A DNA stretch of 17,067 nt from Azolla caroliniana (Eukaryota; Plantae; Polypodiophyta): assembly GCA_043228905.1 (NCBI GenBank), contig JBHGNT010000709.1, forward strand, positions 1 through 17,067, read 5' to 3'. A program made the position numbers and the translations under genes. The notes under the pieces were generated by a model. It was not told the origin of the DNA. It saw only the letters and a program-made list of their open reading frames with translations, and made no database searches. Positions 1 through 17,067 of the stretch are shown here, one piece after another; positions within the stretch are counted from its first letter, which is position 1; each line of letters opens with the position of its first letter.

Positions 1-453
1 GTACTCCTCCTCCTCGCGCGAGAGCTTGTCGAGCAACATAACATTTATACATACATAGGTAAATGTGCGCACTCGCGCGTGCGCGTAGGGGTGTGCGGGC
101 ACGTGCACATTAAACTAGAACGCGCTAGTGCCGAGACACTAAGCACGCGGAGGCTACTGCGGGACGAGTGGTGGCTCCCGAGTGTGCTACATCGATGAAC
201 GTAGATAGACCGGTGTCCGTACTCGCTCGTTCGGACGGACGAGGGGTTGGTAACGACGACGACAAGGAAAGCTAACCGGACTACCACACTAGGAGTGTCC
301 TATCGGGCAAGTGTGGAAGCAAGTTCACATTCGCCGCGTGTACAAGTTGACCTTAGCCTTAGCCGTTGCCGTGGCGTGTGCGGTATGGGTGTCCTGCTTT
401 GATGTTTTCTTTTCCGTTTGGGTGGTTTGCGGTCCCTATAGGCAAATTCTATG

Positions 454-515
454 CGTTGGTGCTCGTGTTTACGTTCGTGTTGGAGGGACGTTGGTGCTCG
501 TGTTTACGTTCGTGT
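454..515. repeat. 27-bp perfect direct repeat in the 3' flank of the gene, in every unit
   Basis: cgttggtgctcgtgtttacgttcgtgt at 454-480 and 489-515, separated by an 8-bp spacer. Confidence 0.9.
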
Positions 516-614
516 GGGTGTAATGCGCGATTGGGGAGACGCACTTGTTCGTAAACACTTACGAGAAATTAGAGAGAGACCACGAGAATAATTTGAACAA
601 GGTTTATGTACTAT

Positions 615-1385
615 TTAGAAGCGACGAATACAAGCACGAGGGCGAAGATCGCACTGTTGGAGTAGGCGGGAGGCGGCGACGCCTAGAGCTCTTTCCTCGT
701 CATCGGCCTTGAATTGGCGACGTTGTTGACGTTCGTCCTCTTGTCGTCGAGACATGCGGTGGCGGCGTTCGTCACCCTCTCGTCGCTCACGGCTGCTATC
801 TCTCTCGCGCTCCTCGTCCTCTTCCTCCCAGCTACGGTGTTCCCTTGATTGTTGGCCATGGCGTCGGCCTTCATCATTGCGTCGTTCCTCCTCGTCAGCA
901 TACAAGGCATCACGTAGGCGATCGCATCGATCTTCGGCGGGGATTCGTTCGACGTTCCTGCAGCACCGTTCCGAGGGTCTTGAGTATCGAGTGTTTTCGA
1001 TCCATGGGGAGCGACGTCCTTGTTCACCTTCCTCTCTTTCGGAGCGCTCTTGTAGCTCTCGGATCTGCTTGTCGATGAAATCACCGCACTCTCGCCTCAG
1101 TTCCTCGTCACGTGGCTCATCGCGACCACGGCTACGACGTTCCCTTTCCTCTTCGGAGTCTCTCTTGTTGTCTCTGTAGCGGCGCCCCTCCTCAAGGAAC
1201 CCCTCACGACGTCGCTCGCACTCCCCCTCTCGGCGTCGATCGCGCCTCTCCTCGTCAATGTCTCCCTCACGACGTCGATCGCGTCGCTCCTCTTCACGGT
1301 CCCGCCCTACAGACCTAGCATTGGCCGCGGTACACGCGGCGAGCATGATCACGGCCATGAGGAATACGGAAGTAAGCTTTGCCAT
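615..1385 (-). CDS. Arg/Glu-rich 2S-albumin-like (prolamin superfamily) secretory storage protein precursor, 256 aa, copy 1
   Basis: Signal peptide MAKLTSVFLMAVIMLAACTAANA. Motifs LRRECGDFIDKQ (C100), ERCCRNVERIPAEDRCDRLRDAL (C141, C142, C154) and ASRLLQQCDLRPRAC (C245, C252) match the 2S-albumin helical scaffold. Plant-like start context GCAATGGC, with TATA and RY boxes upstream. Confidence 0.85.
   Translation of the reverse strand: MAKLTSVFLMAVIMLAACTAANARSVGRDREEERRDRRREGDIDEERRDRRREGECERRREGFLEEGRRYRDNKRDSEEERERRSRGRDEPRDEELRRECGDFIDKQIRELQERSEREEGEQGRRSPWIENTRYSRPSERCCRNVERIPAEDRCDRLRDALYADEEERRNDEGRRHGQQSREHRSWEEEDEERERDSSRERREGDERRHRMSRRQEDERQQRRQFKADDEERALGVAASRLLQQCDLRPRACIRRF
1200..1292 (-). 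repeat. Intragenic peptide repeat EERRDRRREG x2 plus a partial ERRREG (aa 32-62)
   Basis: EERRDRRREG at aa 32-41 and 45-54 (13-aa period) and ERRREG at 57-62. At DNA level ccctcacgacgtcg occurs twice in this region. Confidence 0.85.
1317..1385 (-). other. Predicted ER signal peptide (aa 1-23), present in every copy
   Basis: Basic N-terminus (MAK), hydrophobic core VFLMAVIMLAAC and a small-residue A-N-A cleavage motif before R24. Confidence 0.85.
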
Positions 1386-1451
1386 TGCGATTGTCCTTAT
1401 GATCCCGGTGCTTGTCTCCTAATGGATTGTATTGACATTGCTCCCTCCACC

Positions 1452-1462
1452 TTTAATATATA
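1452..1462 (-). promoter_or_regulatory. TATA box (TATATATTAAA), repeated every 1640 bp
   Basis: Plus-strand tttaatatata lies about 70 bp upstream of the ATG. An initiator-like TCA near 1433 on the minus strand sits about 29 nt downstream of the TATA. Confidence 0.75.
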
Positions 1463-1464
1463 CA

Positions 1465-1495
1465 CATGGCCATGCAATCAGAGCACATGCATGTC
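1465..1495. promoter_or_regulatory. RY elements / legumin-box-like motif (B3-domain ABI3/FUS3/LEC2-type sites), repeated in every unit
   Basis: CATGGCCATGCAA at 1465-1477 and a perfect CATGCATG at 1486-1493, immediately upstream of the TATA box. RY elements are typical of seed storage protein promoters. Confidence 0.75.
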
Positions 1496-1516
1496 ACTCA
1501 CCACTCCCATTACCAT

Positions 1517-1583
1517 AACGTGTGTGTCCTGCGTACAACTCTTGCCCAAGACCCATACCAACTAGTCCACCCTCCCACACGTC
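1517..1583. promoter_or_regulatory. ACGT-core ABRE-like motifs, repeated in every unit
   Basis: AACGTGTG at 1517-1524 and CACACGTC (GACGTGTG on minus) at 1576-1583, just upstream of the RY boxes. These motifs are short, so support is moderate. Confidence 0.45.
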
Positions 1584-1739
1584 TAGGCTAGTCCTAGGTG
1601 TCGTATTGTCACCAGACAATCTGGGCGCAACCTGTAGCGGGTACTCCTCCTCCTCGCGCGAGAGCTTGTCGAGCAACATAACATTTATACATACATAGGT
1701 AAATGTGCGCACTCGCGCGTGCGCGTAGGGGTGTGCGGG

Positions 1740-1745
1740 CACGTG
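1740..1745. promoter_or_regulatory. G-box CACGTG about 355 bp upstream of the ATG (also at 100-105 and every +1640)
   Basis: gcacgtgc palindrome in the spacer. Confidence 0.4.
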
Positions 1746-2254
1746 CACATTAAACTAGAACGCGCTAGTGCCGAGACACTAAGCACGCGGAGGCTACTGC
1801 GGGACGAGTGGTGGCTCCCGAGTGTGCTACATCGATGAACGTAGATAGACCGGTGTCCGTACTCGCTCGTTCGGACGGACGAGGGGTTGGTAACGACGAC
1901 GACAAGGAAAGCTAACCGGACTACCACACTAGGAGTGTCCTATCGGGCAAGTGTGGAAGCAAGTTCACATTCGCCGCGTGTACAAGTTGACCTTAGCCTT
2001 AGCCGTTGCCGTGGCGTGTGCGGTATGGGTGTCCTGCTTTGATGTTTTCTTTTCCGTTTGGGTGGTTTGCGGTCCCTATAGGCAAATTCTATGCGTTGGT
2101 GCTCGTGTTTACGTTCGTGTTGGAGGGACGTTGGTGCTCGTGTTTACGTTCGTGTGGGTGTAATGCGCGATTGGGGAGACGCACTTGTTCGTAAACACTT
2201 ACGAGAAATTAGAGAGAGACCACGAGAATAATTTGAACAAGGTTTATGTACTAT

Positions 2255-3025
2255 TTAGAAGCGACGAATACAAGCACGAGGGCGAAGATCGCACTGTTGG
2301 AGTAGGCGGGAGGCGGCGACGCCTAGAGCTCTTTCCTCGTCATCGGCCTTGAATTGGCGACGTTGTTGACGTTCGTCCTCTTGTCGTCGAGACATGCGGT
2401 GGCGGCGTTCGTCACCCTCTCGTCGCTCACGGCTGCTATCTCTCTCGCGCTCCTCGTCCTCTTCCTCCCAGCTACGGTGTTCCCTTGATTGTTGGCCATG
2501 GCGTCGGCCTTCATCATTGCGTCGTTCCTCCTCGTCAGCATACAAGGCATCACGTAGGCGATCGCATCGATCTTCGGCGGGGATTCGTTCGACGTTCCTG
2601 CAGCACCGTTCCGAGGGTCTTGAGTATCGAGTGTTTTCGATCCATGGGGAGCGACGTCCTTGTTCACCTTCCTCTCTTTCGGAGCGCTCTTGTAGCTCTC
2701 GGATCTGCTTGTCGATGAAATCACCGCACTCTCGCCTCAGTTCCTCGTCACGTGGCTCATCGCGACCACGGCTACGACGTTCCCTTTCCTCTTCGGAGTC
2801 TCTCTTGTTGTCTCTGTAGCGGCGCCCCTCCTCAAGGAACCCCTCACGACGTCGCTCGCACTCCCCCTCTCGGCGTCGATCGCGCCTCTCCTCGTCAATG
2901 TCTCCCTCACGACGTCGATCGCGTCGCTCCTCTTCACGGTCCCGCCCTACAGACCTAGCATTGGCCGCGGTACACGCGGCGAGCATGATCACGGCCATGA
3001 GGAATACGGAAGTAAGCTTTGCCAT
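2255..3025 (-). CDS. 2S-albumin-like Arg/Glu-rich storage protein precursor, copy 2
   Basis: Translation identical to copy 1. Confidence 0.85.
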   Translation of the reverse strand: MAKLTSVFLMAVIMLAACTAANARSVGRDREEERRDRRREGDIDEERRDRRREGECERRREGFLEEGRRYRDNKRDSEEERERRSRGRDEPRDEELRRECGDFIDKQIRELQERSEREEGEQGRRSPWIENTRYSRPSERCCRNVERIPAEDRCDRLRDALYADEEERRNDEGRRHGQQSREHRSWEEEDEERERDSSRERREGDERRHRMSRRQEDERQQRRQFKADDEERALGVAASRLLQQCDLRPRACIRRF

Positions 3026-3894
3026 TGCGATTGTCCTTATGATCCCGGTGCTTGTCTCCTAATGGATTGTATTGACATTGCTCCCTCCACCTTTAATATA
3101 TACACATGGCCATGCAATCAGAGCACATGCATGTCACTCACCACTCCCATTACCATAACGTGTGTGTCCTGCGTACAACTCTTGCCCAAGACCCATACCA
3201 ACTAGTCCACCCTCCCACACGTCTAGGCTAGTCCTAGGTGTCGTATTGTCACCAGACAATCTGGGCGCAACCTGTAGCGGGTACTCCTCCTCCTCGCGCG
3301 AGAGCTTGTCGAGCAACATAACATTTATACATACATAGGTAAATGTGCGCACTCGCGCGTGCGCGTAGGGGTGTGCGGGCACGTGCACATTAAACTAGAA
3401 CGCGCTAGTGCCGAGACACTAAGCACGCGGAGGCTACTGCGGGACGAGTGGTGGCTCCCGAGTGTGCTACATCGATGAACGTAGATAGACCGGTGTCCGT
3501 ACTCGCTCGTTCGGACGGACGAGGGGTTGGTAACGACGACGACAAGGAAAGCTAACCGGACTACCACACTAGGAGTGTCCTATCGGGCAAGTGTGGAAGC
3601 AAGTTCACATTCGCCGCGTGTACAAGTTGACCTTAGCCTTAGCCGTTGCCGTGGCGTGTGCGGTATGGGTGTCCTGCTTTGATGTTTTCTTTTCCGTTTG
3701 GGTGGTTTGCGGTCCCTATAGGCAAATTCTATGCGTTGGTGCTCGTGTTTACGTTCGTGTTGGAGGGACGTTGGTGCTCGTGTTTACGTTCGTGTGGGTG
3801 TAATGCGCGATTGGGGAGACGCACTTGTTCGTAAACACTTACGAGAAATTAGAGAGAGACCACGAGAATAATTTGAACAAGGTTTATGTACTAT

Positions 3895-4665
3895 TTAGAA
3901 GCGACGAATACAAGCACGAGGGCGAAGATCGCACTGTTGGAGTAGGCGGGAGGCGGCGACGCCTAGAGCTCTTTCCTCGTCATCGGCCTTGAATTGGCGA
4001 CGTTGTTGACGTTCGTCCTCTTGTCGTCGAGACATGCGGTGGCGGCGTTCGTCACCCTCTCGTCGCTCACGGCTGCTATCTCTCTCGCGCTCCTCGTCCT
4101 CTTCCTCCCAGCTACGGTGTTCCCTTGATTGTTGGCCATGGCGTCGGCCTTCATCATTGCGTCGTTCCTCCTCGTCAGCATACAAGGCATCACGTAGGCG
4201 ATCGCATCGATCTTCGGCGGGGATTCGTTCGACGTTCCTGCAGCACCGTTCCGAGGGTCTTGAGTATCGAGTGTTTTCGATCCATGGGGAGCGACGTCCT
4301 TGTTCACCTTCCTCTCTTTCGGAGCGCTCTTGTAGCTCTCGGATCTGCTTGTCGATGAAATCACCGCACTCTCGCCTCAGTTCCTCGTCACGTGGCTCAT
4401 CGCGACCACGGCTACGACGTTCCCTTTCCTCTTCGGAGTCTCTCTTGTTGTCTCTGTAGCGGCGCCCCTCCTCAAGGAACCCCTCACGACGTCGCTCGCA
4501 CTCCCCCTCTCGGCGTCGATCGCGCCTCTCCTCGTCAATGTCTCCCTCACGACGTCGATCGCGTCGCTCCTCTTCACGGTCCCGCCCTACAGACCTAGCA
4601 TTGGCCGCGGTACACGCGGCGAGCATGATCACGGCCATGAGGAATACGGAAGTAAGCTTTGCCAT
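3895..4665 (-). CDS. 2S-albumin-like Arg/Glu-rich storage protein precursor, copy 3
   Basis: Translation identical to copy 1. Confidence 0.85.
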   Translation of the reverse strand: MAKLTSVFLMAVIMLAACTAANARSVGRDREEERRDRRREGDIDEERRDRRREGECERRREGFLEEGRRYRDNKRDSEEERERRSRGRDEPRDEELRRECGDFIDKQIRELQERSEREEGEQGRRSPWIENTRYSRPSERCCRNVERIPAEDRCDRLRDALYADEEERRNDEGRRHGQQSREHRSWEEEDEERERDSSRERREGDERRHRMSRRQEDERQQRRQFKADDEERALGVAASRLLQQCDLRPRACIRRF

Positions 4666-5534
4666 TGCGATTGTCCTTATGATCCCGGTGCTTGTCTCCT
4701 AATGGATTGTATTGACATTGCTCCCTCCACCTTTAATATATACACATGGCCATGCAATCAGAGCACATGCATGTCACTCACCACTCCCATTACCATAACG
4801 TGTGTGTCCTGCGTACAACTCTTGCCCAAGACCCATACCAACTAGTCCACCCTCCCACACGTCTAGGCTAGTCCTAGGTGTCGTATTGTCACCAGACAAT
4901 CTGGGCGCAACCTGTAGCGGGTACTCCTCCTCCTCGCGCGAGAGCTTGTCGAGCAACATAACATTTATACATACATAGGTAAATGTGCGCACTCGCGCGT
5001 GCGCGTAGGGGTGTGCGGGCACGTGCACATTAAACTAGAACGCGCTAGTGCCGAGACACTAAGCACGCGGAGGCTACTGCGGGACGAGTGGTGGCTCCCG
5101 AGTGTGCTACATCGATGAACGTAGATAGACCGGTGTCCGTACTCGCTCGTTCGGACGGACGAGGGGTTGGTAACGACGACGACAAGGAAAGCTAACCGGA
5201 CTACCACACTAGGAGTGTCCTATCGGGCAAGTGTGGAAGCAAGTTCACATTCGCCGCGTGTACAAGTTGACCTTAGCCTTAGCCGTTGCCGTGGCGTGTG
5301 CGGTATGGGTGTCCTGCTTTGATGTTTTCTTTTCCGTTTGGGTGGTTTGCGGTCCCTATAGGCAAATTCTATGCGTTGGTGCTCGTGTTTACGTTCGTGT
5401 TGGAGGGACGTTGGTGCTCGTGTTTACGTTCGTGTGGGTGTAATGCGCGATTGGGGAGACGCACTTGTTCGTAAACACTTACGAGAAATTAGAGAGAGAC
5501 CACGAGAATAATTTGAACAAGGTTTATGTACTAT

Positions 5535-6305
5535 TTAGAAGCGACGAATACAAGCACGAGGGCGAAGATCGCACTGTTGGAGTAGGCGGGAGGCGGCGAC
5601 GCCTAGAGCTCTTTCCTCGTCATCGGCCTTGAATTGGCGACGTTGTTGACGTTCGTCCTCTTGTCGTCGAGACATGCGGTGGCGGCGTTCGTCACCCTCT
5701 CGTCGCTCACGGCTGCTATCTCTCTCGCGCTCCTCGTCCTCTTCCTCCCAGCTACGGTGTTCCCTTGATTGTTGGCCATGGCGTCGGCCTTCATCATTGC
5801 GTCGTTCCTCCTCGTCAGCATACAAGGCATCACGTAGGCGATCGCATCGATCTTCGGCGGGGATTCGTTCGACGTTCCTGCAGCACCGTTCCGAGGGTCT
5901 TGAGTATCGAGTGTTTTCGATCCATGGGGAGCGACGTCCTTGTTCACCTTCCTCTCTTTCGGAGCGCTCTTGTAGCTCTCGGATCTGCTTGTCGATGAAA
6001 TCACCGCACTCTCGCCTCAGTTCCTCGTCACGTGGCTCATCGCGACCACGGCTACGACGTTCCCTTTCCTCTTCGGAGTCTCTCTTGTTGTCTCTGTAGC
6101 GGCGCCCCTCCTCAAGGAACCCCTCACGACGTCGCTCGCACTCCCCCTCTCGGCGTCGATCGCGCCTCTCCTCGTCAATGTCTCCCTCACGACGTCGATC
6201 GCGTCGCTCCTCTTCACGGTCCCGCCCTACAGACCTAGCATTGGCCGCGGTACACGCGGCGAGCATGATCACGGCCATGAGGAATACGGAAGTAAGCTTT
6301 GCCAT
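5535..6305 (-). CDS. 2S-albumin-like Arg/Glu-rich storage protein precursor, copy 4
   Basis: Translation identical to copy 1. Confidence 0.85.
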   Translation of the reverse strand: MAKLTSVFLMAVIMLAACTAANARSVGRDREEERRDRRREGDIDEERRDRRREGECERRREGFLEEGRRYRDNKRDSEEERERRSRGRDEPRDEELRRECGDFIDKQIRELQERSEREEGEQGRRSPWIENTRYSRPSERCCRNVERIPAEDRCDRLRDALYADEEERRNDEGRRHGQQSREHRSWEEEDEERERDSSRERREGDERRHRMSRRQEDERQQRRQFKADDEERALGVAASRLLQQCDLRPRACIRRF

Positions 6306-7174
6306 TGCGATTGTCCTTATGATCCCGGTGCTTGTCTCCTAATGGATTGTATTGACATTGCTCCCTCCACCTTTAATATATACACATGGCCATGCAATCA
6401 GAGCACATGCATGTCACTCACCACTCCCATTACCATAACGTGTGTGTCCTGCGTACAACTCTTGCCCAAGACCCATACCAACTAGTCCACCCTCCCACAC
6501 GTCTAGGCTAGTCCTAGGTGTCGTATTGTCACCAGACAATCTGGGCGCAACCTGTAGCGGGTACTCCTCCTCCTCGCGCGAGAGCTTGTCGAGCAACATA
6601 ACATTTATACATACATAGGTAAATGTGCGCACTCGCGCGTGCGCGTAGGGGTGTGCGGGCACGTGCACATTAAACTAGAACGCGCTAGTGCCGAGACACT
6701 AAGCACGCGGAGGCTACTGCGGGACGAGTGGTGGCTCCCGAGTGTGCTACATCGATGAACGTAGATAGACCGGTGTCCGTACTCGCTCGTTCGGACGGAC
6801 GAGGGGTTGGTAACGACGACGACAAGGAAAGCTAACCGGACTACCACACTAGGAGTGTCCTATCGGGCAAGTGTGGAAGCAAGTTCACATTCGCCGCGTG
6901 TACAAGTTGACCTTAGCCTTAGCCGTTGCCGTGGCGTGTGCGGTATGGGTGTCCTGCTTTGATGTTTTCTTTTCCGTTTGGGTGGTTTGCGGTCCCTATA
7001 GGCAAATTCTATGCGTTGGTGCTCGTGTTTACGTTCGTGTTGGAGGGACGTTGGTGCTCGTGTTTACGTTCGTGTGGGTGTAATGCGCGATTGGGGAGAC
7101 GCACTTGTTCGTAAACACTTACGAGAAATTAGAGAGAGACCACGAGAATAATTTGAACAAGGTTTATGTACTAT

Positions 7175-7945
7175 TTAGAAGCGACGAATACAAGCACGAG
7201 GGCGAAGATCGCACTGTTGGAGTAGGCGGGAGGCGGCGACGCCTAGAGCTCTTTCCTCGTCATCGGCCTTGAATTGGCGACGTTGTTGACGTTCGTCCTC
7301 TTGTCGTCGAGACATGCGGTGGCGGCGTTCGTCACCCTCTCGTCGCTCACGGCTGCTATCTCTCTCGCGCTCCTCGTCCTCTTCCTCCCAGCTACGGTGT
7401 TCCCTTGATTGTTGGCCATGGCGTCGGCCTTCATCATTGCGTCGTTCCTCCTCGTCAGCATACAAGGCATCACGTAGGCGATCGCATCGATCTTCGGCGG
7501 GGATTCGTTCGACGTTCCTGCAGCACCGTTCCGAGGGTCTTGAGTATCGAGTGTTTTCGATCCATGGGGAGCGACGTCCTTGTTCACCTTCCTCTCTTTC
7601 GGAGCGCTCTTGTAGCTCTCGGATCTGCTTGTCGATGAAATCACCGCACTCTCGCCTCAGTTCCTCGTCACGTGGCTCATCGCGACCACGGCTACGACGT
7701 TCCCTTTCCTCTTCGGAGTCTCTCTTGTTGTCTCTGTAGCGGCGCCCCTCCTCAAGGAACCCCTCACGACGTCGCTCGCACTCCCCCTCTCGGCGTCGAT
7801 CGCGCCTCTCCTCGTCAATGTCTCCCTCACGACGTCGATCGCGTCGCTCCTCTTCACGGTCCCGCCCTACAGACCTAGCATTGGCCGCGGTACACGCGGC
7901 GAGCATGATCACGGCCATGAGGAATACGGAAGTAAGCTTTGCCAT
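7175..7945 (-). CDS. 2S-albumin-like Arg/Glu-rich storage protein precursor, copy 5
   Basis: Translation identical to copy 1. Confidence 0.85.
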   Translation of the reverse strand: MAKLTSVFLMAVIMLAACTAANARSVGRDREEERRDRRREGDIDEERRDRRREGECERRREGFLEEGRRYRDNKRDSEEERERRSRGRDEPRDEELRRECGDFIDKQIRELQERSEREEGEQGRRSPWIENTRYSRPSERCCRNVERIPAEDRCDRLRDALYADEEERRNDEGRRHGQQSREHRSWEEEDEERERDSSRERREGDERRHRMSRRQEDERQQRRQFKADDEERALGVAASRLLQQCDLRPRACIRRF

Positions 7946-8814
7946 TGCGATTGTCCTTATGATCCCGGTGCTTGTCTCCTAATGGATTGTATTGACATTG
8001 CTCCCTCCACCTTTAATATATACACATGGCCATGCAATCAGAGCACATGCATGTCACTCACCACTCCCATTACCATAACGTGTGTGTCCTGCGTACAACT
8101 CTTGCCCAAGACCCATACCAACTAGTCCACCCTCCCACACGTCTAGGCTAGTCCTAGGTGTCGTATTGTCACCAGACAATCTGGGCGCAACCTGTAGCGG
8201 GTACTCCTCCTCCTCGCGCGAGAGCTTGTCGAGCAACATAACATTTATACATACATAGGTAAATGTGCGCACTCGCGCGTGCGCGTAGGGGTGTGCGGGC
8301 ACGTGCACATTAAACTAGAACGCGCTAGTGCCGAGACACTAAGCACGCGGAGGCTACTGCGGGACGAGTGGTGGCTCCCGAGTGTGCTACATCGATGAAC
8401 GTAGATAGACCGGTGTCCGTACTCGCTCGTTCGGACGGACGAGGGGTTGGTAACGACGACGACAAGGAAAGCTAACCGGACTACCACACTAGGAGTGTCC
8501 TATCGGGCAAGTGTGGAAGCAAGTTCACATTCGCCGCGTGTACAAGTTGACCTTAGCCTTAGCCGTTGCCGTGGCGTGTGCGGTATGGGTGTCCTGCTTT
8601 GATGTTTTCTTTTCCGTTTGGGTGGTTTGCGGTCCCTATAGGCAAATTCTATGCGTTGGTGCTCGTGTTTACGTTCGTGTTGGAGGGACGTTGGTGCTCG
8701 TGTTTACGTTCGTGTGGGTGTAATGCGCGATTGGGGAGACGCACTTGTTCGTAAACACTTACGAGAAATTAGAGAGAGACCACGAGAATAATTTGAACAA
8801 GGTTTATGTACTAT

Positions 8815-9585
8815 TTAGAAGCGACGAATACAAGCACGAGGGCGAAGATCGCACTGTTGGAGTAGGCGGGAGGCGGCGACGCCTAGAGCTCTTTCCTCGT
8901 CATCGGCCTTGAATTGGCGACGTTGTTGACGTTCGTCCTCTTGTCGTCGAGACATGCGGTGGCGGCGTTCGTCACCCTCTCGTCGCTCACGGCTGCTATC
9001 TCTCTCGCGCTCCTCGTCCTCTTCCTCCCAGCTACGGTGTTCCCTTGATTGTTGGCCATGGCGTCGGCCTTCATCATTGCGTCGTTCCTCCTCGTCAGCA
9101 TACAAGGCATCACGTAGGCGATCGCATCGATCTTCGGCGGGGATTCGTTCGACGTTCCTGCAGCACCGTTCCGAGGGTCTTGAGTATCGAGTGTTTTCGA
9201 TCCATGGGGAGCGACGTCCTTGTTCACCTTCCTCTCTTTCGGAGCGCTCTTGTAGCTCTCGGATCTGCTTGTCGATGAAATCACCGCACTCTCGCCTCAG
9301 TTCCTCGTCACGTGGCTCATCGCGACCACGGCTACGACGTTCCCTTTCCTCTTCGGAGTCTCTCTTGTTGTCTCTGTAGCGGCGCCCCTCCTCAAGGAAC
9401 CCCTCACGACGTCGCTCGCACTCCCCCTCTCGGCGTCGATCGCGCCTCTCCTCGTCAATGTCTCCCTCACGACGTCGATCGCGTCGCTCCTCTTCACGGT
9501 CCCGCCCTACAGACCTAGCATTGGCCGCGGTACACGCGGCGAGCATGATCACGGCCATGAGGAATACGGAAGTAAGCTTTGCCAT
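8815..9585 (-). CDS. 2S-albumin-like Arg/Glu-rich storage protein precursor, copy 6
   Basis: Translation identical to copy 1. Confidence 0.85.
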   Translation of the reverse strand: MAKLTSVFLMAVIMLAACTAANARSVGRDREEERRDRRREGDIDEERRDRRREGECERRREGFLEEGRRYRDNKRDSEEERERRSRGRDEPRDEELRRECGDFIDKQIRELQERSEREEGEQGRRSPWIENTRYSRPSERCCRNVERIPAEDRCDRLRDALYADEEERRNDEGRRHGQQSREHRSWEEEDEERERDSSRERREGDERRHRMSRRQEDERQQRRQFKADDEERALGVAASRLLQQCDLRPRACIRRF

Positions 9586-10454
9586 TGCGATTGTCCTTAT
9601 GATCCCGGTGCTTGTCTCCTAATGGATTGTATTGACATTGCTCCCTCCACCTTTAATATATACACATGGCCATGCAATCAGAGCACATGCATGTCACTCA
9701 CCACTCCCATTACCATAACGTGTGTGTCCTGCGTACAACTCTTGCCCAAGACCCATACCAACTAGTCCACCCTCCCACACGTCTAGGCTAGTCCTAGGTG
9801 TCGTATTGTCACCAGACAATCTGGGCGCAACCTGTAGCGGGTACTCCTCCTCCTCGCGCGAGAGCTTGTCGAGCAACATAACATTTATACATACATAGGT
9901 AAATGTGCGCACTCGCGCGTGCGCGTAGGGGTGTGCGGGCACGTGCACATTAAACTAGAACGCGCTAGTGCCGAGACACTAAGCACGCGGAGGCTACTGC
10001 GGGACGAGTGGTGGCTCCCGAGTGTGCTACATCGATGAACGTAGATAGACCGGTGTCCGTACTCGCTCGTTCGGACGGACGAGGGGTTGGTAACGACGAC
10101 GACAAGGAAAGCTAACCGGACTACCACACTAGGAGTGTCCTATCGGGCAAGTGTGGAAGCAAGTTCACATTCGCCGCGTGTACAAGTTGACCTTAGCCTT
10201 AGCCGTTGCCGTGGCGTGTGCGGTATGGGTGTCCTGCTTTGATGTTTTCTTTTCCGTTTGGGTGGTTTGCGGTCCCTATAGGCAAATTCTATGCGTTGGT
10301 GCTCGTGTTTACGTTCGTGTTGGAGGGACGTTGGTGCTCGTGTTTACGTTCGTGTGGGTGTAATGCGCGATTGGGGAGACGCACTTGTTCGTAAACACTT
10401 ACGAGAAATTAGAGAGAGACCACGAGAATAATTTGAACAAGGTTTATGTACTAT

Positions 10455-11225
10455 TTAGAAGCGACGAATACAAGCACGAGGGCGAAGATCGCACTGTTGG
10501 AGTAGGCGGGAGGCGGCGACGCCTAGAGCTCTTTCCTCGTCATCGGCCTTGAATTGGCGACGTTGTTGACGTTCGTCCTCTTGTCGTCGAGACATGCGGT
10601 GGCGGCGTTCGTCACCCTCTCGTCGCTCACGGCTGCTATCTCTCTCGCGCTCCTCGTCCTCTTCCTCCCAGCTACGGTGTTCCCTTGATTGTTGGCCATG
10701 GCGTCGGCCTTCATCATTGCGTCGTTCCTCCTCGTCAGCATACAAGGCATCACGTAGGCGATCGCATCGATCTTCGGCGGGGATTCGTTCGACGTTCCTG
10801 CAGCACCGTTCCGAGGGTCTTGAGTATCGAGTGTTTTCGATCCATGGGGAGCGACGTCCTTGTTCACCTTCCTCTCTTTCGGAGCGCTCTTGTAGCTCTC
10901 GGATCTGCTTGTCGATGAAATCACCGCACTCTCGCCTCAGTTCCTCGTCACGTGGCTCATCGCGACCACGGCTACGACGTTCCCTTTCCTCTTCGGAGTC
11001 TCTCTTGTTGTCTCTGTAGCGGCGCCCCTCCTCAAGGAACCCCTCACGACGTCGCTCGCACTCCCCCTCTCGGCGTCGATCGCGCCTCTCCTCGTCAATG
11101 TCTCCCTCACGACGTCGATCGCGTCACTCCTCTTCACGGTCCCGCCCTACAGACCTAGCATTGGCCGCGGTACACGCGGCGAGCATGATCACGGCCATGA
11201 GGAATACGGAAGTAAGCTTTGCCAT
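10455..11225 (-). pseudogene. Copy 7 of the 2S-albumin-like gene with a premature stop (R34*)
   Basis: Plus strand reads gcgtcactcc at 11121-11130 versus gcgtcgctcc in the other copies. G>A at 11126 changes minus-strand codon 34 from CGA to TGA (11124-11126). The ORF track shows only a 96-aa remnant. Confidence 0.8.
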
Positions 11226-12094
11226 TGCGATTGTCCTTATGATCCCGGTGCTTGTCTCCTAATGGATTGTATTGACATTGCTCCCTCCACCTTTAATATA
11301 TACACATGGCCATGCAATCAGAGCACATGCATGTCACTCACCACTCCCATTACCATAACGTGTGTGTCCTGCGTACAACTCTTGCCCAAGACCCATACCA
11401 ACTAGTCCACCCTCCCACACGTCTAGGCTAGTCCTAGGTGTCGTATTGTCACCAGACAATCTGGGCGCAACCTGTAGCGGGTACTCCTCCTCCTCGCGCG
11501 AGAGCTTGTCGAGCAACATAACATTTATACATACATAGGTAAATGTGCGCACTCGCGCGTGCGCGTAGGGGTGTGCGGGCACGTGCACATTAAACTAGAA
11601 CGCGCTAGTGCCGAGACACTAAGCACGCGGAGGCTACTGCGGGACGAGTGGTGGCTCCCGAGTGTGCTACATCGATGAACGTAGATAGACCGGTGTCCGT
11701 ACTCGCTCGTTCGGACGGACGAGGGGTTGGTAACGACGACGACAAGGAAAGCTAACCGGACTACCACACTAGGAGTGTCCTATCGGGCAAGTGTGGAAGC
11801 AAGTTCACATTCGCCGCGTGTACAAGTTGACCTTAGCCTTAGCCGTTGCCGTGGCGTGTGCGGTATGGGTGTCCTGCTTTGATGTTTTCTTTTCCGTTTG
11901 GGTGGTTTGCGGTCCCTATAGGCAAATTCTATGCGTTGGTGCTCGTGTTTACGTTCGTGTTGGAGGGACGTTGGTGCTCGTGTTTACGTTCGTGTGGGTG
12001 TAATGCGCGATTGGGGAGACGCACTTGTTCGTAAACACTTACGAGAAATTAGAGAGAGACCACGAGAATAATTTGAACAAGGTTTATGTACTAT

Positions 12095-12865
12095 TTAGAA
12101 GCGACGAATACAAGCACGAGGGCGAAGATCGCACTGTTGGAGTAGGCGGGAGGCGGCGACGCCTAGAGCTCTTTCCTCGTCATCGGCCTTGAATTGGCGA
12201 CGTTGTTGACGTTCGTCCTCTTGTCGTCGAGACATGCGGTGGCGGCGTTCGTCACCCTCTCGTCGCTCACGGCTGCTATCTCTCTCGCGCTCCTCGTCCT
12301 CTTCCTCCCAGCTACGGTGTTCCCTTGATTGTTGGCCATGGCGTCGGCCTTCATCATTGCGTCGTTCCTCCTCGTCAGCATACAAGGCATCACGTAGGCG
12401 ATCGCATCGATCTTCGGCGGGGATTCGTTCGACGTTCCTGCAGCACCGTTCCGAGGGTCTTGAGTATCGAGTGTTTTCGATCCATGGGGAGCGACGTCCT
12501 TGTTCACCTTCCTCTCTTTCGGAGCGCTCTTGTAGCTCTCGGATCTGCTTGTCGATGAAATCACCGCACTCTCGCCTCAGTTCCTCGTCACGTGGCTCAT
12601 CGCGACCACGGCTACGACGTTCCCTTTCCTCTTCGGAGTCTCTCTTGTTGTCTCTGTAGCGGCGCCCCTCCTCAAGGAACCCCTCACGACGTCGCTCGCA
12701 CTCCCCCTCTCGGCGTCGATCGCGCCTCTCCTCGTCAATGTCTCCCTCACGACGTCGATCGCGTCGCTCCTCTTCACGGTCCCGCCCTACAGACCTAGCA
12801 TTGGCCGCGGTACACGCGGCGAGCATGATCACGGCCATGAGGAATACGGAAGTAAGCTTTGCCAT
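12095..12865 (-). CDS. 2S-albumin-like Arg/Glu-rich storage protein precursor, copy 8
   Basis: Translation identical to copy 1. Confidence 0.85.
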   Translation of the reverse strand: MAKLTSVFLMAVIMLAACTAANARSVGRDREEERRDRRREGDIDEERRDRRREGECERRREGFLEEGRRYRDNKRDSEEERERRSRGRDEPRDEELRRECGDFIDKQIRELQERSEREEGEQGRRSPWIENTRYSRPSERCCRNVERIPAEDRCDRLRDALYADEEERRNDEGRRHGQQSREHRSWEEEDEERERDSSRERREGDERRHRMSRRQEDERQQRRQFKADDEERALGVAASRLLQQCDLRPRACIRRF

Positions 12866-13734
12866 TGCGATTGTCCTTATGATCCCGGTGCTTGTCTCCT
12901 AATGGATTGTATTGACATTGCTCCCTCCACCTTTAATATATACACATGGCCATGCAATCAGAGCACATGCATGTCACTCACCACTCCCATTACCATAACG
13001 TGTGTGTCCTGCGTACAACTCTTGCCCAAGACCCATACCAACTAGTCCACCCTCCCACACGTCTAGGCTAGTCCTAGGTGTCGTATTGTCACCAGACAAT
13101 CTGGGCGCAACCTGTAGCGGGTACTCCTCCTCCTCGCGCGAGAGCTTGTCGAGCAACATAACATTTATACATACATAGGTAAATGTGCGCACTCGCGCGT
13201 GCGCGTAGGGGTGTGCGGGCACGTGCACATTAAACTAGAACGCGCTAGTGCCGAGACACTAAGCACGCGGAGGCTACTGCGGGACGAGTGGTGGCTCCCG
13301 AGTGTGCTACATCGATGAACGTAGATAGACCGGTGTCCGTACTCGCTCGTTCGGACGGACGAGGGGTTGGTAACGACGACGACAAGGAAAGCTAACCGGA
13401 CTACCACACTAGGAGTGTCCTATCGGGCAAGTGTGGAAGCAAGTTCACATTCGCCGCGTGTACAAGTTGACCTTAGCCTTAGCCGTTGCCGTGGCGTGTG
13501 CGGTATGGGTGTCCTGCTTTGATGTTTTCTTTTCCGTTTGGGTGGTTTGCGGTCCCTATAGGCAAATTCTATGCGTTGGTGCTCGTGTTTACGTTCGTGT
13601 TGGAGGGACGTTGGTGCTCGTGTTTACGTTCGTGTGGGTGTAATGCGCGATTGGGGAGACGCACTTGTTCGTAAACACTTACGAGAAATTAGAGAGAGAC
13701 CACGAGAATAATTTGAACAAGGTTTATGTACTAT

Positions 13735-14505
13735 TTAGAAGCGACGAATACAAGCACGAGGGCGAAGATCGCACTGTTGGAGTAGGCGGGAGGCGGCGAC
13801 GCCTAGAGCTCTTTCCTCGTCATCGGCCTTGAATTGGCGACGTTGTTGACGTTCGTCCTCTTGTCGTCGAGACATGCGGTGGCGGCGTTCGTCACCCTCT
13901 CGTCGCTCACGGCTGCTATCTCTCTCGCGCTCCTCGTCCTCTTCCTCCCAGCTACGGTGTTCCCTTGATTGTTGGCCATGGCGTCGGCCTTCATCATTGC
14001 GTCGTTCCTCCTCGTCAGCATACAAGGCATCACGTAGGCGATCGCATCGATCTTCGGCGGGGATTCGTTCGACGTTCCTGCAGCACCGTTCCGAGGGTCT
14101 TGAGTATCGAGTGTTTTCGATCCATGGGGAGCGACGTCCTTGTTCACCTTCCTCTCTTTCGGAGCGCTCTTGTAGCTCTCGGATCTGCTTGTCGATGAAA
14201 TCACCGCACTCTCGCCTCAGTTCCTCGTCACGTGGCTCATCGCGACCACGGCTACGACGTTCCCTTTCCTCTTCGGAGTCTCTCTTGTTGTCTCTGTAGC
14301 GGCGCCCCTCCTCAAGGAACCCCTCACGACGTCGCTCGCACTCCCCCTCTCGGCGTCGATCGCGCCTCTCCTCGTCAATGTCTCCCTCACGACGTCGATC
14401 GCGTCGCTCCTCTTCACGGTCCCGCCCTACAGACCTAGCATTGGCCGCGGTACACGCGGCGAGCATGATCACGGCCATGAGGAATACGGAAGTAAGCTTT
14501 GCCAT
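13735..14505 (-). CDS. 2S-albumin-like Arg/Glu-rich storage protein precursor, copy 9
   Basis: Translation identical to copy 1. Confidence 0.85.
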   Translation of the reverse strand: MAKLTSVFLMAVIMLAACTAANARSVGRDREEERRDRRREGDIDEERRDRRREGECERRREGFLEEGRRYRDNKRDSEEERERRSRGRDEPRDEELRRECGDFIDKQIRELQERSEREEGEQGRRSPWIENTRYSRPSERCCRNVERIPAEDRCDRLRDALYADEEERRNDEGRRHGQQSREHRSWEEEDEERERDSSRERREGDERRHRMSRRQEDERQQRRQFKADDEERALGVAASRLLQQCDLRPRACIRRF

Positions 14506-15374
14506 TGCGATTGTCCTTATGATCCCGGTGCTTGTCTCCTAATGGATTGTATTGACATTGCTCCCTCCACCTTTAATATATACACATGGCCATGCAATCA
14601 GAGCACATGCATGTCACTCACCACTCCCATTACCATAACGTGTGTGTCCTGCGTACAACTCTTGCCCAAGACCCATACCAACTAGTCCACCCTCCCACAC
14701 GTCTAGGCTAGTCCTAGGTGTCGTATTGTCACCAGACAATCTGGGCGCAACCTGTAGCGGGTACTCCTCCTCCTCGCGCGAGAGCTTGTCGAGCAACATA
14801 ACATTTATACATACATAGGTAAATGTGCGCACTCGCGCGTGCGCGTAGGGGTGTGCGGGCACGTGCACATTAAACTAGAACGCGCTAGTGCCGAGACACT
14901 AAGCACGCGGAGGCTACTGCGGGACGAGTGGTGGCTCCCGAGTGTGCTACATCGATGAACGTAGATAGACCGGTGTCCGTACTCGCTCGTTCGGACGGAC
15001 GAGGGGTTGGTAACGACGACGACAAGGAAAGCTAACCGGACTACCACACTAGGAGTGTCCTATCGGGCAAGTGTGGAAGCAAGTTCACATTCGCCGCGTG
15101 TACAAGTTGACCTTAGCCTTAGCCGTTGCCGTGGCGTGTGCGGTATGGGTGTCCTGCTTTGATGTTTTCTTTTCCGTTTGGGTGGTTTGCGGTCCCTATA
15201 GGCAAATTCTATGCGTTGGTGCTCGTGTTTACGTTCGTGTTGGAGGGACGTTGGTGCTCGTGTTTACGTTCGTGTGGGTGTAATGCGCGATTGGGGAGAC
15301 GCACTTGTTCGTAAACACTTACGAGAAATTAGAGAGAGACCACGAGAATAATTTGAACAAGGTTTATGTACTAT

Positions 15375-16145
15375 TTAGAAGCGACGAATACAAGCACGAG
15401 GGCGAAGATCGCACTGTTGGAGTAGGCGGGAGGCGGCGACGCCTAGAGCTCTTTCCTCGTCATCGGCCTTGAATTGGCGACGTTGTTGACGTTCGTCCTC
15501 TTGTCGTCGAGACATGCGGTGGCGGCGTTCGTCACCCTCTCGTCGCTCACGGCTGCTATCTCTCTCGCGCTCCTCGTCCTCTTCCTCCCAGCTACGGTGT
15601 TCCCTTGATTGTTGGCCATGGCGTCGGCCTTCATCATTGCGTCGTTCCTCCTCGTCAGCATACAAGGCATCACGTAGGCGATCGCATCGATCTTCGGCGG
15701 GGATTCGTTCGACGTTCCTGCAGCACCGTTCCGAGGGTCTTGAGTATCGAGTGTTTTCGATCCATGGGGAGCGACGTCCTTGTTCACCTTCCTCTCTTTC
15801 GGAGCGCTCTTGTAGCTCTCGGATCTGCTTGTCGATGAAATCACCGCACTCTCGCCTCAGTTCCTCGTCACGTGGCTCATCGCGACCACGGCTACGACGT
15901 TCCCTTTCCTCTTCGGAGTCTCTCTTGTTGTCTCTGTAGCGGCGCCCCTCCTCAAGGAACCCCTCACGACGTCGCTCGCACTCCCCCTCTCGGCGTCGAT
16001 CGCGCCTCTCCTCGTCAATGTCTCCCTCACGACGTCGATCGCGTCGCTCCTCTTCACGGTCCCGCCCTACAGACCTAGCATTGGCCGCGGTACACGCGGC
16101 GAGCATGATCACGGCCATGAGGAATACGGAAGTAAGCTTTGCCAT
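15375..16145 (-). CDS. 2S-albumin-like Arg/Glu-rich storage protein precursor, copy 10
   Basis: Translation identical to copy 1. Confidence 0.85.
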   Translation of the reverse strand: MAKLTSVFLMAVIMLAACTAANARSVGRDREEERRDRRREGDIDEERRDRRREGECERRREGFLEEGRRYRDNKRDSEEERERRSRGRDEPRDEELRRECGDFIDKQIRELQERSEREEGEQGRRSPWIENTRYSRPSERCCRNVERIPAEDRCDRLRDALYADEEERRNDEGRRHGQQSREHRSWEEEDEERERDSSRERREGDERRHRMSRRQEDERQQRRQFKADDEERALGVAASRLLQQCDLRPRACIRRF

Positions 16146-17014
16146 TGCGATTGTCCTTATGATCCCGGTGCTTGTCTCCTAATGGATTGTATTGACATTG
16201 CTCCCTCCACCTTTAATATATACACATGGCCATGCAATCAGAGCACATGCATGTCACTCACCACTCCCATTACCATAACGTGTGTGTCCTGCGTACAACT
16301 CTTGCCCAAGACCCATACCAACTAGTCCACCCTCCCACACGTCTAGGCTAGTCCTAGGTGTCGTATTGTCACCAGACAATCTGGGCGCAACCTGTAGCGG
16401 GTACTCCTCCTCCTCGCGCGAGAGCTTGTCGAGCAACATAACATTTATACATACATAGGTAAATGTGCGCACTCGCGCGTGCGCGTAGGGGTGTGCGGGC
16501 ACGTGCACATTAAACTAGAACGCGCTAGTGCCGAGACACTAAGCACGCGGAGGCTACTGCGGGACGAGTGGTGGCTCCCGAGTGTGCTACATCGATGAAC
16601 GTAGATAGACCGGTGTCCGTACTCGCTCGTTCGGACGGACGAGGGGTTGGTAACGACGACGACAAGGAAAGCTAACCGGACTACCACACTAGGAGTGTCC
16701 TATCGGGCAAGTGTGGAAGCAAGTTCACATTCGCCGCGTGTACAAGTTGACCTTAGCCTTAGCCGTTGCCGTGGCGTGTGCGGTATGGGTGTCCTGCTTT
16801 GATGTTTTCTTTTCCGTTTGGGTGGTTTGCGGTCCCTATAGGCAAATTCTATGCGTTGGTGCTCGTGTTTACGTTCGTGTTGGAGGGACGTTGGTGCTCG
16901 TGTTTACGTTCGTGTGGGTGTAATGCGCGATTGGGGAGACGCACTTGTTCGTAAACACTTACGAGAAATTAGAGAGAGACCACGAGAATAATTTGAACAA
17001 GGTTTATGTACTAT

Positions 17015-17067
17015 TTAGAAGCGACGAATACAAGCACGAGGGCGAAGATCGCACTGTTGGAGTAGGC
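17015..17067 (-). CDS. 3' end of copy 11 (…RLLQQCDLRPRACIRRF*), truncated by the window edge
   Basis: Sequence identical to 615-667. The array continues beyond the window. Confidence 0.8.
   Translation of the reverse strand, partial: LLQQCDLRPRACIRRF

Follow-up and report, generated by a model that had tools for sequence, protein, structure and literature searches.

Maintenance in the fashion of ribosomal DNA (rDNA) is not something one expects of a protein-coding gene in a plant. How, then, is contig JBHGNT010000709.1 of the water fern Azolla caroliniana (assembly GCA_043228905.1) to be explained, whose 17,067 nucleotides, analysed whole and hereafter called the window, consist of a single gene-bearing unit repeated head to tail? 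Here we argue, at a probability of roughly 0.7, that the window belongs to a head-to-tail array of several hundred copies, likely chromosomal, of a gene for an arginine-rich protein resembling 2S albumins, which is likely a nitrogen reserve of water-fern spores.

Autocorrelation over the whole window gave a 1640-bp unit in 10.41 head-to-tail copies (10 full units plus 667 bp; self-identity 99.99%), a regularity well outside what chance would give and one bearing out the count of at least 10.4 copies in a preliminary description of this DNA; the exact number of ten units rests on this one assembly. In each unit the minus strand holds a 771-base intronless open reading frame (ORF) of 256 codons, the remaining 869 bases being spacer; its other ORFs are off-frame or antisense shadows of the main one. 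Comparison of all units agreed with the earlier statement that they differ by no indel and one substitution (within-window diversity 1.2e-4), and further revealed what the substitution does: the column that varies is window 11126 (G>A), where a CpG transition converts codon 34 of copy 7 from CGA to TGA, a nonsense allele, leaving the coding sequence intact in 9 of the 10 complete copies. Because about 5% of the unit's possible CpG transitions yield such a stop, the change may be a genuine methylation-type mutation or a base error. Searches for other elements returned no Rfam family in bases 1–3400 at E≤1 and, from Tandem Repeats Finder, only a weak 19-bp internal repeat (period limit 500, so blind to 1640 bp). 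Separately, the 16 CGA arginine codons per gene make the gene prone to methylation-driven nonsense changes.

For comparison with independent sequences we drew on a metagenome pattern search, which confirmed 4 of 146 hits (contigs L001–L003 among them), and on sequencing runs (coded X1–X23) whose contigs were aligned to window positions 1–3400. Two of the metagenome contigs, L002 (unit about 1730 bp, coverage 596; read round, so that its repeat count is uncertain) and L003 (unit 1857 bp, coverage 441), carry diverged versions of the array, each running from coding sequence through spacer into the promoter or coding sequence of the next copy and hence arranged head to tail. Their synonymous divergence (dS) from the window is 0.160 and 0.174, the ratio of nonsynonymous to synonymous divergence (dN/dS) is 0.20 and 0.12, and spacer identity is 72% and 66%, respectively. 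With frames open in all three versions and dN/dS of 0.12–0.20, the unit does not behave as a non-coding satellite, and the substitution pattern indicates that its coding sequence is under purifying selection.

Low diversity within an array combined with divergence between lineages marks concerted evolution (PMC8133586, PMC8122249). That is the pattern here, with 1.2e-4 inside the window against dS of 0.16–0.17 and spacer identities of 66–72% between versions, and because relatives at this distance share the head-to-tail, high-depth layout, the comparisons point to an old, rDNA-like array evolving in concert and not to a one-off burst. Of the two origins that the preliminary description had offered, concerted evolution thus holds up, and a very recent one-off amplification does not fit relatives that already carry the same architecture. 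At window 1215 (+1640n), X1, X4 and X13 carry a 15-base in-frame insertion at the full depth of the main family, whereas X17, L001 and the window lack it; a spacer C>T stands at full depth in X4 and X13 and is missing from X1 and from most of the X17 depth. Since both are at full depth in some samples and absent from others, turnover of the array is ongoing. The 15-base indel, array-wide in opposite states by sample (unit 1640 or 1655), also offers a marker for strain typing and for the timing of homogenisation.

Five runs (X1, X4, X13, X14 and X17) contain a second diverged high-depth family, whose depth relative to the main one is roughly a third in X13 and a quarter in X17, and which in X13 carries the L003 letters at 11 of 14 listed sites. 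It may reflect two arrays per genome or a hybrid origin; some differences between "lineages" may accordingly lie between two loci or subgenomes, each still homogeneous inside. Further observations concern the fine structure of these families. Lineage-specific short Arg/Glu repeat expansions (L002:1–175, 30-base units; L003:790–930, 15–21-base units) lie between the CC and C-terminal Cys regions and bring the protein to about 292–295 residues. The 3' flank of every gene copy bears a near-perfect 31-base direct repeat (window 458–519), and L003 and L004 have duplications of their own there. A further contig, L004 (positions 1–1317; coverage 332), from the assembly that contains L003, begins with 3' end and spacer sequence of yet another array family, 87% identical to L003. 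Near base 600, at the conserved G-box block, it breaks off into about 700 AT-rich bases (34% GC) that lack a long ORF, so that this may be where an array ends or where an insertion joins it.

Conservation of the spacer is concentrated near the gene: in the comparison with L002, identity is 94% at −119 to −70 versus 46–62% in several middle blocks. The window, L002 and L003 all show a maturation-type promoter signature of RY and G-box elements (Table 1). This combination is the signature of ABI3 targets, and the RY–ABI3 link reaches ferns (PMC3458547).

Table 1. Features of the window, in window coordinates.
Feature	Position	Strand	Remark
Head-to-tail array, 1640-bp unit	1..17067		both window ends open
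Coding sequence, copy 1	615..1385	-	256-residue Arg/Glu-rich 2S-albumin-like precursor, intronless
Predicted signal peptide, codons 1–23	1317..1385	-	by eye; same in L002 and L003
Spacer, 869 bp	1386..2254	-	copy 2 3' flank and copy 1 promoter/leader; middle diverges between lineages
TATA box, copy 1	1452..1462	-	−77; kept in L002 and L003
Second RY-like site TGCATGGCCATG	1465..1476	-	−91; kept in L002 and L003
RY element CATGCATG	1486..1493	-	−108; kept in L002 and L003
G-box block TGCACGTG	1740..1747	-	about −360 (−362); TGCACGT retained in L002 and L003
Coding sequence, copy 2	2255..3025	-	intact
Coding sequence, copy 3	3895..4665	-	intact
Coding sequence, copy 4	5535..6305	-	intact
Coding sequence, copy 5	7175..7945	-	intact
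Coding sequence, copy 6	8815..9585	-	intact
Coding sequence, copy 7	10455..11225	-	stop at codon 34
Coding sequence, copy 8	12095..12865	-	intact
Coding sequence, copy 9	13735..14505	-	intact
Coding sequence, copy 10	15375..16145	-	intact
Coding sequence, copy 11	17015..17067	-	3' end only, cut by window edge

A hint of expression comes from a relative. In the presumed-RNA run X20, a run of 5 Mb of contigs, 278 contigs fall on the gene with a summed depth of up to 1.7e5, and in X19, from the same study, 4 contigs do so at depth 8–29; their letters agree with L002 at 22 of 25 listed sites and with L003 at 10 of 25. An array-type copy may thus be transcribed very abundantly in that relative, at one stage or in one tissue. 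The listed runs that contain the unit include no RNA run of the window's own organism, and from a third presumed-RNA run, X23, no contig was placed on window 1–3400; we count neither as evidence in either direction. Nor do we count the lack of X19 and X20 cover over spacer positions 1445–2211, or an X19 contig whose end lies about 47 bases short of the ATG, since contigs prove neither a transcript start nor an absence.

These results bear on whether the array might instead be a mostly silent macrosatellite, shaped by neutral repeat dynamics, with few copies expressed and a copy number without function. Such a repeat would account for a sole variant that is a CpG transition to a stop and for a depletion of CHG (observed/expected 0.70 in the coding sequence and 0.44 in the spacer) such as methylation would give, and satellites too evolve in concert (PMC8122249); it accords poorly with undepleted CpG (observed/expected 1.24), with a consensus that is open and apparently under purifying selection in three versions, with promoter motifs that are the best-kept parts of the spacer, and with abundant presumed-RNA contigs of a relative that match an array variant. 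We therefore regard a silent repeat as unlikely.

What the gene encodes is the second part of the question. The 256-residue protein is 26% arginine, its mature part of 233 residues containing 66 Arg, 48 Glu and 23 Asp, and nitrogen makes up 22% of its mass, with 58% of that nitrogen in arginine. A candidate signal peptide, recognised by eye, has hydrophobic residues 7–17, ends in A-N-A and is invariant across the three array versions. That the gene is intronless is indicated by the open 256-codon frame and by a presumed-RNA contig of the relative that spans 874–1399 without a joint. The protein matches PF00234 (prolamin superfamily) at 21.7 bits, exactly the curated cut-off of 21.7, and its neighbours in a protein atlas are Globulin 1 and 2S albumin clusters (scores 0.79–0.82) together with prolamin clusters, all scoring below 0.9 and a lead only. 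Six cysteines (100, 141, 142, 154, 245 and 252) are kept in all three versions, and a 78-residue core aligns weakly (E 3) with castor 2S albumin (1PSY), the linker E-N (130–131) and the CC pair being in register.

Beyond this core, an exact look-up in a protein collection gave no match, homologue searches returned only a diverged 190-residue paralogue (P0001) and a 45-residue fragment, and residues 95–256 had no homologue at E≤10 among 702 candidates; none of these searches turned up a named fern homologue. P0001 is 54% identical over the first 98 residues and unrelated beyond, and is probably frameshifted, an orphan copy dispersed from the array; other orphans are suggested by diverged contigs of low depth in the sequencing runs. 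Pfam rows for Conotoxin and PFF1_TM, far under cut-off and falling on the signal peptide, were rejected. We place the protein, on sequence grounds, as 2S-albumin-like inside the prolamin superfamily and short of full 2S albumin membership, the eight-cysteine motif being incomplete. The preliminary label of a 2S albumin storage gene therefore survives as to its likeness, with PF00234 at cut-off, and requires amendment as to the motif, which lacks two of eight cysteines, and as to the setting: because the host is a seed-free fern, the protein is likely a spore reserve rather than a seed reserve. Fern spores do contain 2S albumins (PMC4973428).

Alternatively, the protein could serve mainly in defence or desiccation protection and not as a nutrient store. 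Its best sequence matches in the PDB are to the ragi amylase/trypsin inhibitor (E 0.17–0.9), 2S albumins can be antifungal (PMC6563476), storage-like fern spore proteins have been linked to desiccation (PMC12598765), and AlphaFold2 models of low confidence render the E/R-rich parts as long single helices. The inhibitor matches, however, are insignificant and confined to the shared CC stretch, the nitrogen composition is extreme, and the number of Arg/Glu repeats varies freely between versions, which fits bulk rather than a binding site. A primarily protective role thus appears improbable, and a nitrogen reserve remains the preferred reading.

How many copies does the genome hold? At least half of the unit's sequence words occur in 18 of 24 listed runs from 13 studies; leaving aside a possible source study, support comes from 4 studies and 8 leaf-metagenome studies, the latter possibly one campaign. 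The separately assembled contig L001 (coverage 657) agrees with the window at 100% of 2057 bp and wraps round at a period of 1640, and even leaf-metagenome runs as small as X4, with 40 Mb of contigs, yield an assembled unit. Among the pieces listed, contigs identical or nearly so to the unit reach depths of 6,800–7,400 in X13, 4,300–5,600 in X14 and 22,000–25,000 in X17, whose recurring top value of 25,000 could be an upper limit of the scale; in X13, X17 and X14, respectively, diverged paralogue contigs reach 8–19, 32–49 and 9–21. The median ratios of unit to diverged depth are 759, 718 and 401 (ranges spanning 206–886), drawn from 28 of 479 and 21 of 421 pieces, with second-family contigs and X4, which has no comparator, left out. 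Taking the diverged contigs as single-copy, we estimate several hundred copies per genome, about 400–760 in the three deep runs, or some 0.7–1.2 Mb. The ten or so copies first seen thus give way to a scale of hundreds, and because it is present in leaf-sample DNA, the array looks inherited.

Copies carried outside the chromosome as circles or rolling-circle concatemers, or recent bursts that started independently in each lineage from a gene present once, would explain why contigs L001–L003 are formally circular and why no flank was found for the window's array. Neither process would readily produce depth ratios that are alike in three studies, or the same head-to-tail layout and unit order in versions 0.16–0.17 dS apart; the unit contains no origin or mobility gene by its ORF list and Rfam, and pattern hits in viral (0 of 76) and prokaryote (0 of 88) collections went unconfirmed. 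We hold such origins to be improbable, to much the same degree as a protective role. The possibility that a gene present once or twice was multiplied by an assembly, amplification or concatemer artefact, for which polishing that inflates the near-perfect identity and the absence of the copy-7 variant among the variant rows listed for the sequencing-run contigs might be cited, is hardly credible and as to high copy number refuted, given depths in independent runs that range from thousands up to 25,000, assembly of the unit in small leaf-metagenome runs and independent contigs across the unit junction, so that the earlier claim of a real array stands.

Several points nevertheless weigh against a chromosomal array of functional reserve genes. 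The window's sole variant creates a stop codon, and no read or contig of the runs examined joins a chromosome flank to the window's array. The copy-number yardstick consists of diverged low-depth contigs whose single-copy state is assumed and is uncalibrated on single-copy genes; contig depth differs from copy number proper, and the shallow run X1 gave a ratio of only 119 from one comparator. As to the protein, the L002 and L003 versions score 19.0 and 19.3 bits, just under the PF00234 cut-off, two AlphaFold2 predictions on 4-row alignments (predicted template-modelling scores 0.23 and 0.31) did not recover the disulfide-held four-helix bundle of 2S albumins, and two of the eight family cysteines are absent, namely the one that opens the motif and the leading one of the CXC pair, which reads D-R-C. 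In 2S albumins these two pair as one disulfide, so that their loss would be a tidy pair. X19 and X20 come from a related organism and an unspecified tissue and are only guessed to be RNA, contig depth being in any case a poor measure of expression, and the premise of a single-nucleus megaspore, used below, is general background.

With these reservations, a mechanism can be proposed. Unequal exchange and gene conversion would sweep new variants through the array in the manner of rDNA. ABI3- and bZIP-type factors acting on the RY and G-box elements would turn the copies on at spore maturation, and the precursor would enter the endoplasmic reticulum, be cut after an Asn in its linker and be stored. 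Sporocarps are described as a resting stage that carries nutrient reserves, the gametophyte forming after detachment (PMC8386757). We infer that the array raises protein output, and in the least tested step of the scheme, copy number would be kept because one haploid megaspore nucleus must deposit a large reserve fast, ahead of gametophyte formation, a job that seeds share among many cells. The general proposition that heterosporous water ferns fill a giant single-nucleus megaspore by means of a germ-line, rDNA-like array of 400–800 copies of a seed-type storage gene is more tentative, and we would put it somewhat short of even odds.

Tandem gene arrays, concerted evolution and 2S albumins are all familiar; new is an rDNA-style array made from a storage-protein gene. 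We know of no more highly repeated protein-coding gene in land plants, if the figure of 400–800 copies is true. A literature search, whose coverage excluded subscription papers and bioRxiv supplements that may bear on novelty, found no description of a storage-gene array. The words "storage" and "albumin" have no occurrence in the main texts of PMC6786969, PMC8386757, bioRxiv 10.1101/2023.02.19.528669 and PMC9477723, and in the supplements of PMC6786969, among the first matches listed, they are confined to a table of orthogroups. An array of this kind would have escaped notice in short-read assemblies, which reduce it to a single gene. The array allows concerted evolution to be tested on protein-coding DNA, with a dN/dS read-out that rDNA cannot offer, and presents hundreds of RNA polymerase II (Pol II) genes that apparently evade repeat silencing. 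To the nitrogen-rich spore proteins of seed-free plants, named as an open question in a 2025 review (PMC12598765), it brings a concrete gene, promoter and copy-number prediction. For Azolla, a fern under domestication via spores, the locus is a marker and a strong candidate for a spore-specific promoter. If megaspore dosage is indeed the reason for the copies, parallel amplification of reserve genes would be expected in Salvinia, Marsilea, Selaginella and Isoetes, and would be expected to disappear where seeds came to distribute storage among many cells.

How does the locus compare with known systems? The gene resembles those of 2S albumins (castor RicC3, 1PSY) and of matteuccin, an ostrich-fern spore protein (Rodin and Rask 1990, as cited in PMC4973428), in its candidate signal peptide, intronless structure, C...CC...C...C...C skeleton, putative linker Asn, RY/G-box promoter and Arg/Glu richness. 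It differs from 2S albumins in the absence of the first Cys and the first of CXC and in long Arg/Glu/Asp repeat inserts (256–295 residues), and its hundreds of homogenised copies contrast with the handful in Arabidopsis (four SESA genes listed in PMC3458547).

Like rDNA, 5S and animal replication-histone arrays, the locus consists of whole transcription units arranged head to tail in hundreds of copies, homogeneous within a lineage, with spacers that diverge. Animal replication-histone gene arrays evolve in concert. So do rDNA arrays (PMC8133586). Unlike all of these, the unit here is a Pol II gene, probably tissue-restricted, for a secreted reserve protein, and not for a housekeeping RNA or chromatin protein. 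Among protein-coding clusters, wheat gliadins (up to about 150 copies) and maize zeins are tandem storage genes. Ceratopteris has a tandem block of 36 aerolysin-like and 21 PAD genes (PMC9477723), and Cycas has a vicilin-like tandem array (PMC9023351). The Azolla array shares with these clusters its tandem protein-coding genes, some of them for storage; whereas they comprise tens of diverging copies, it has about 10 times the copy number of the fern block and is identical down to its spacers.

Macrosatellites offer a further parallel, the ELOA3 cluster being a gene-bearing example (PMC10664989). D4Z4/DUX4 and ELOA3 likewise have a kilobase-sized, CpG-rich unit with an intronless ORF; the present array, unlike them, is from a plant and shows purifying selection across lineages. 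EPSPS amplification is driven by herbicide, and the array described here is far older. Amplification of oocyte rDNA and of Drosophila chorion genes is somatic and transient, unlike an array that is present in leaf-sample DNA and looks inherited, yet the likely purpose is alike, namely to supply enough templates for a single bulk product to be made within a brief period.

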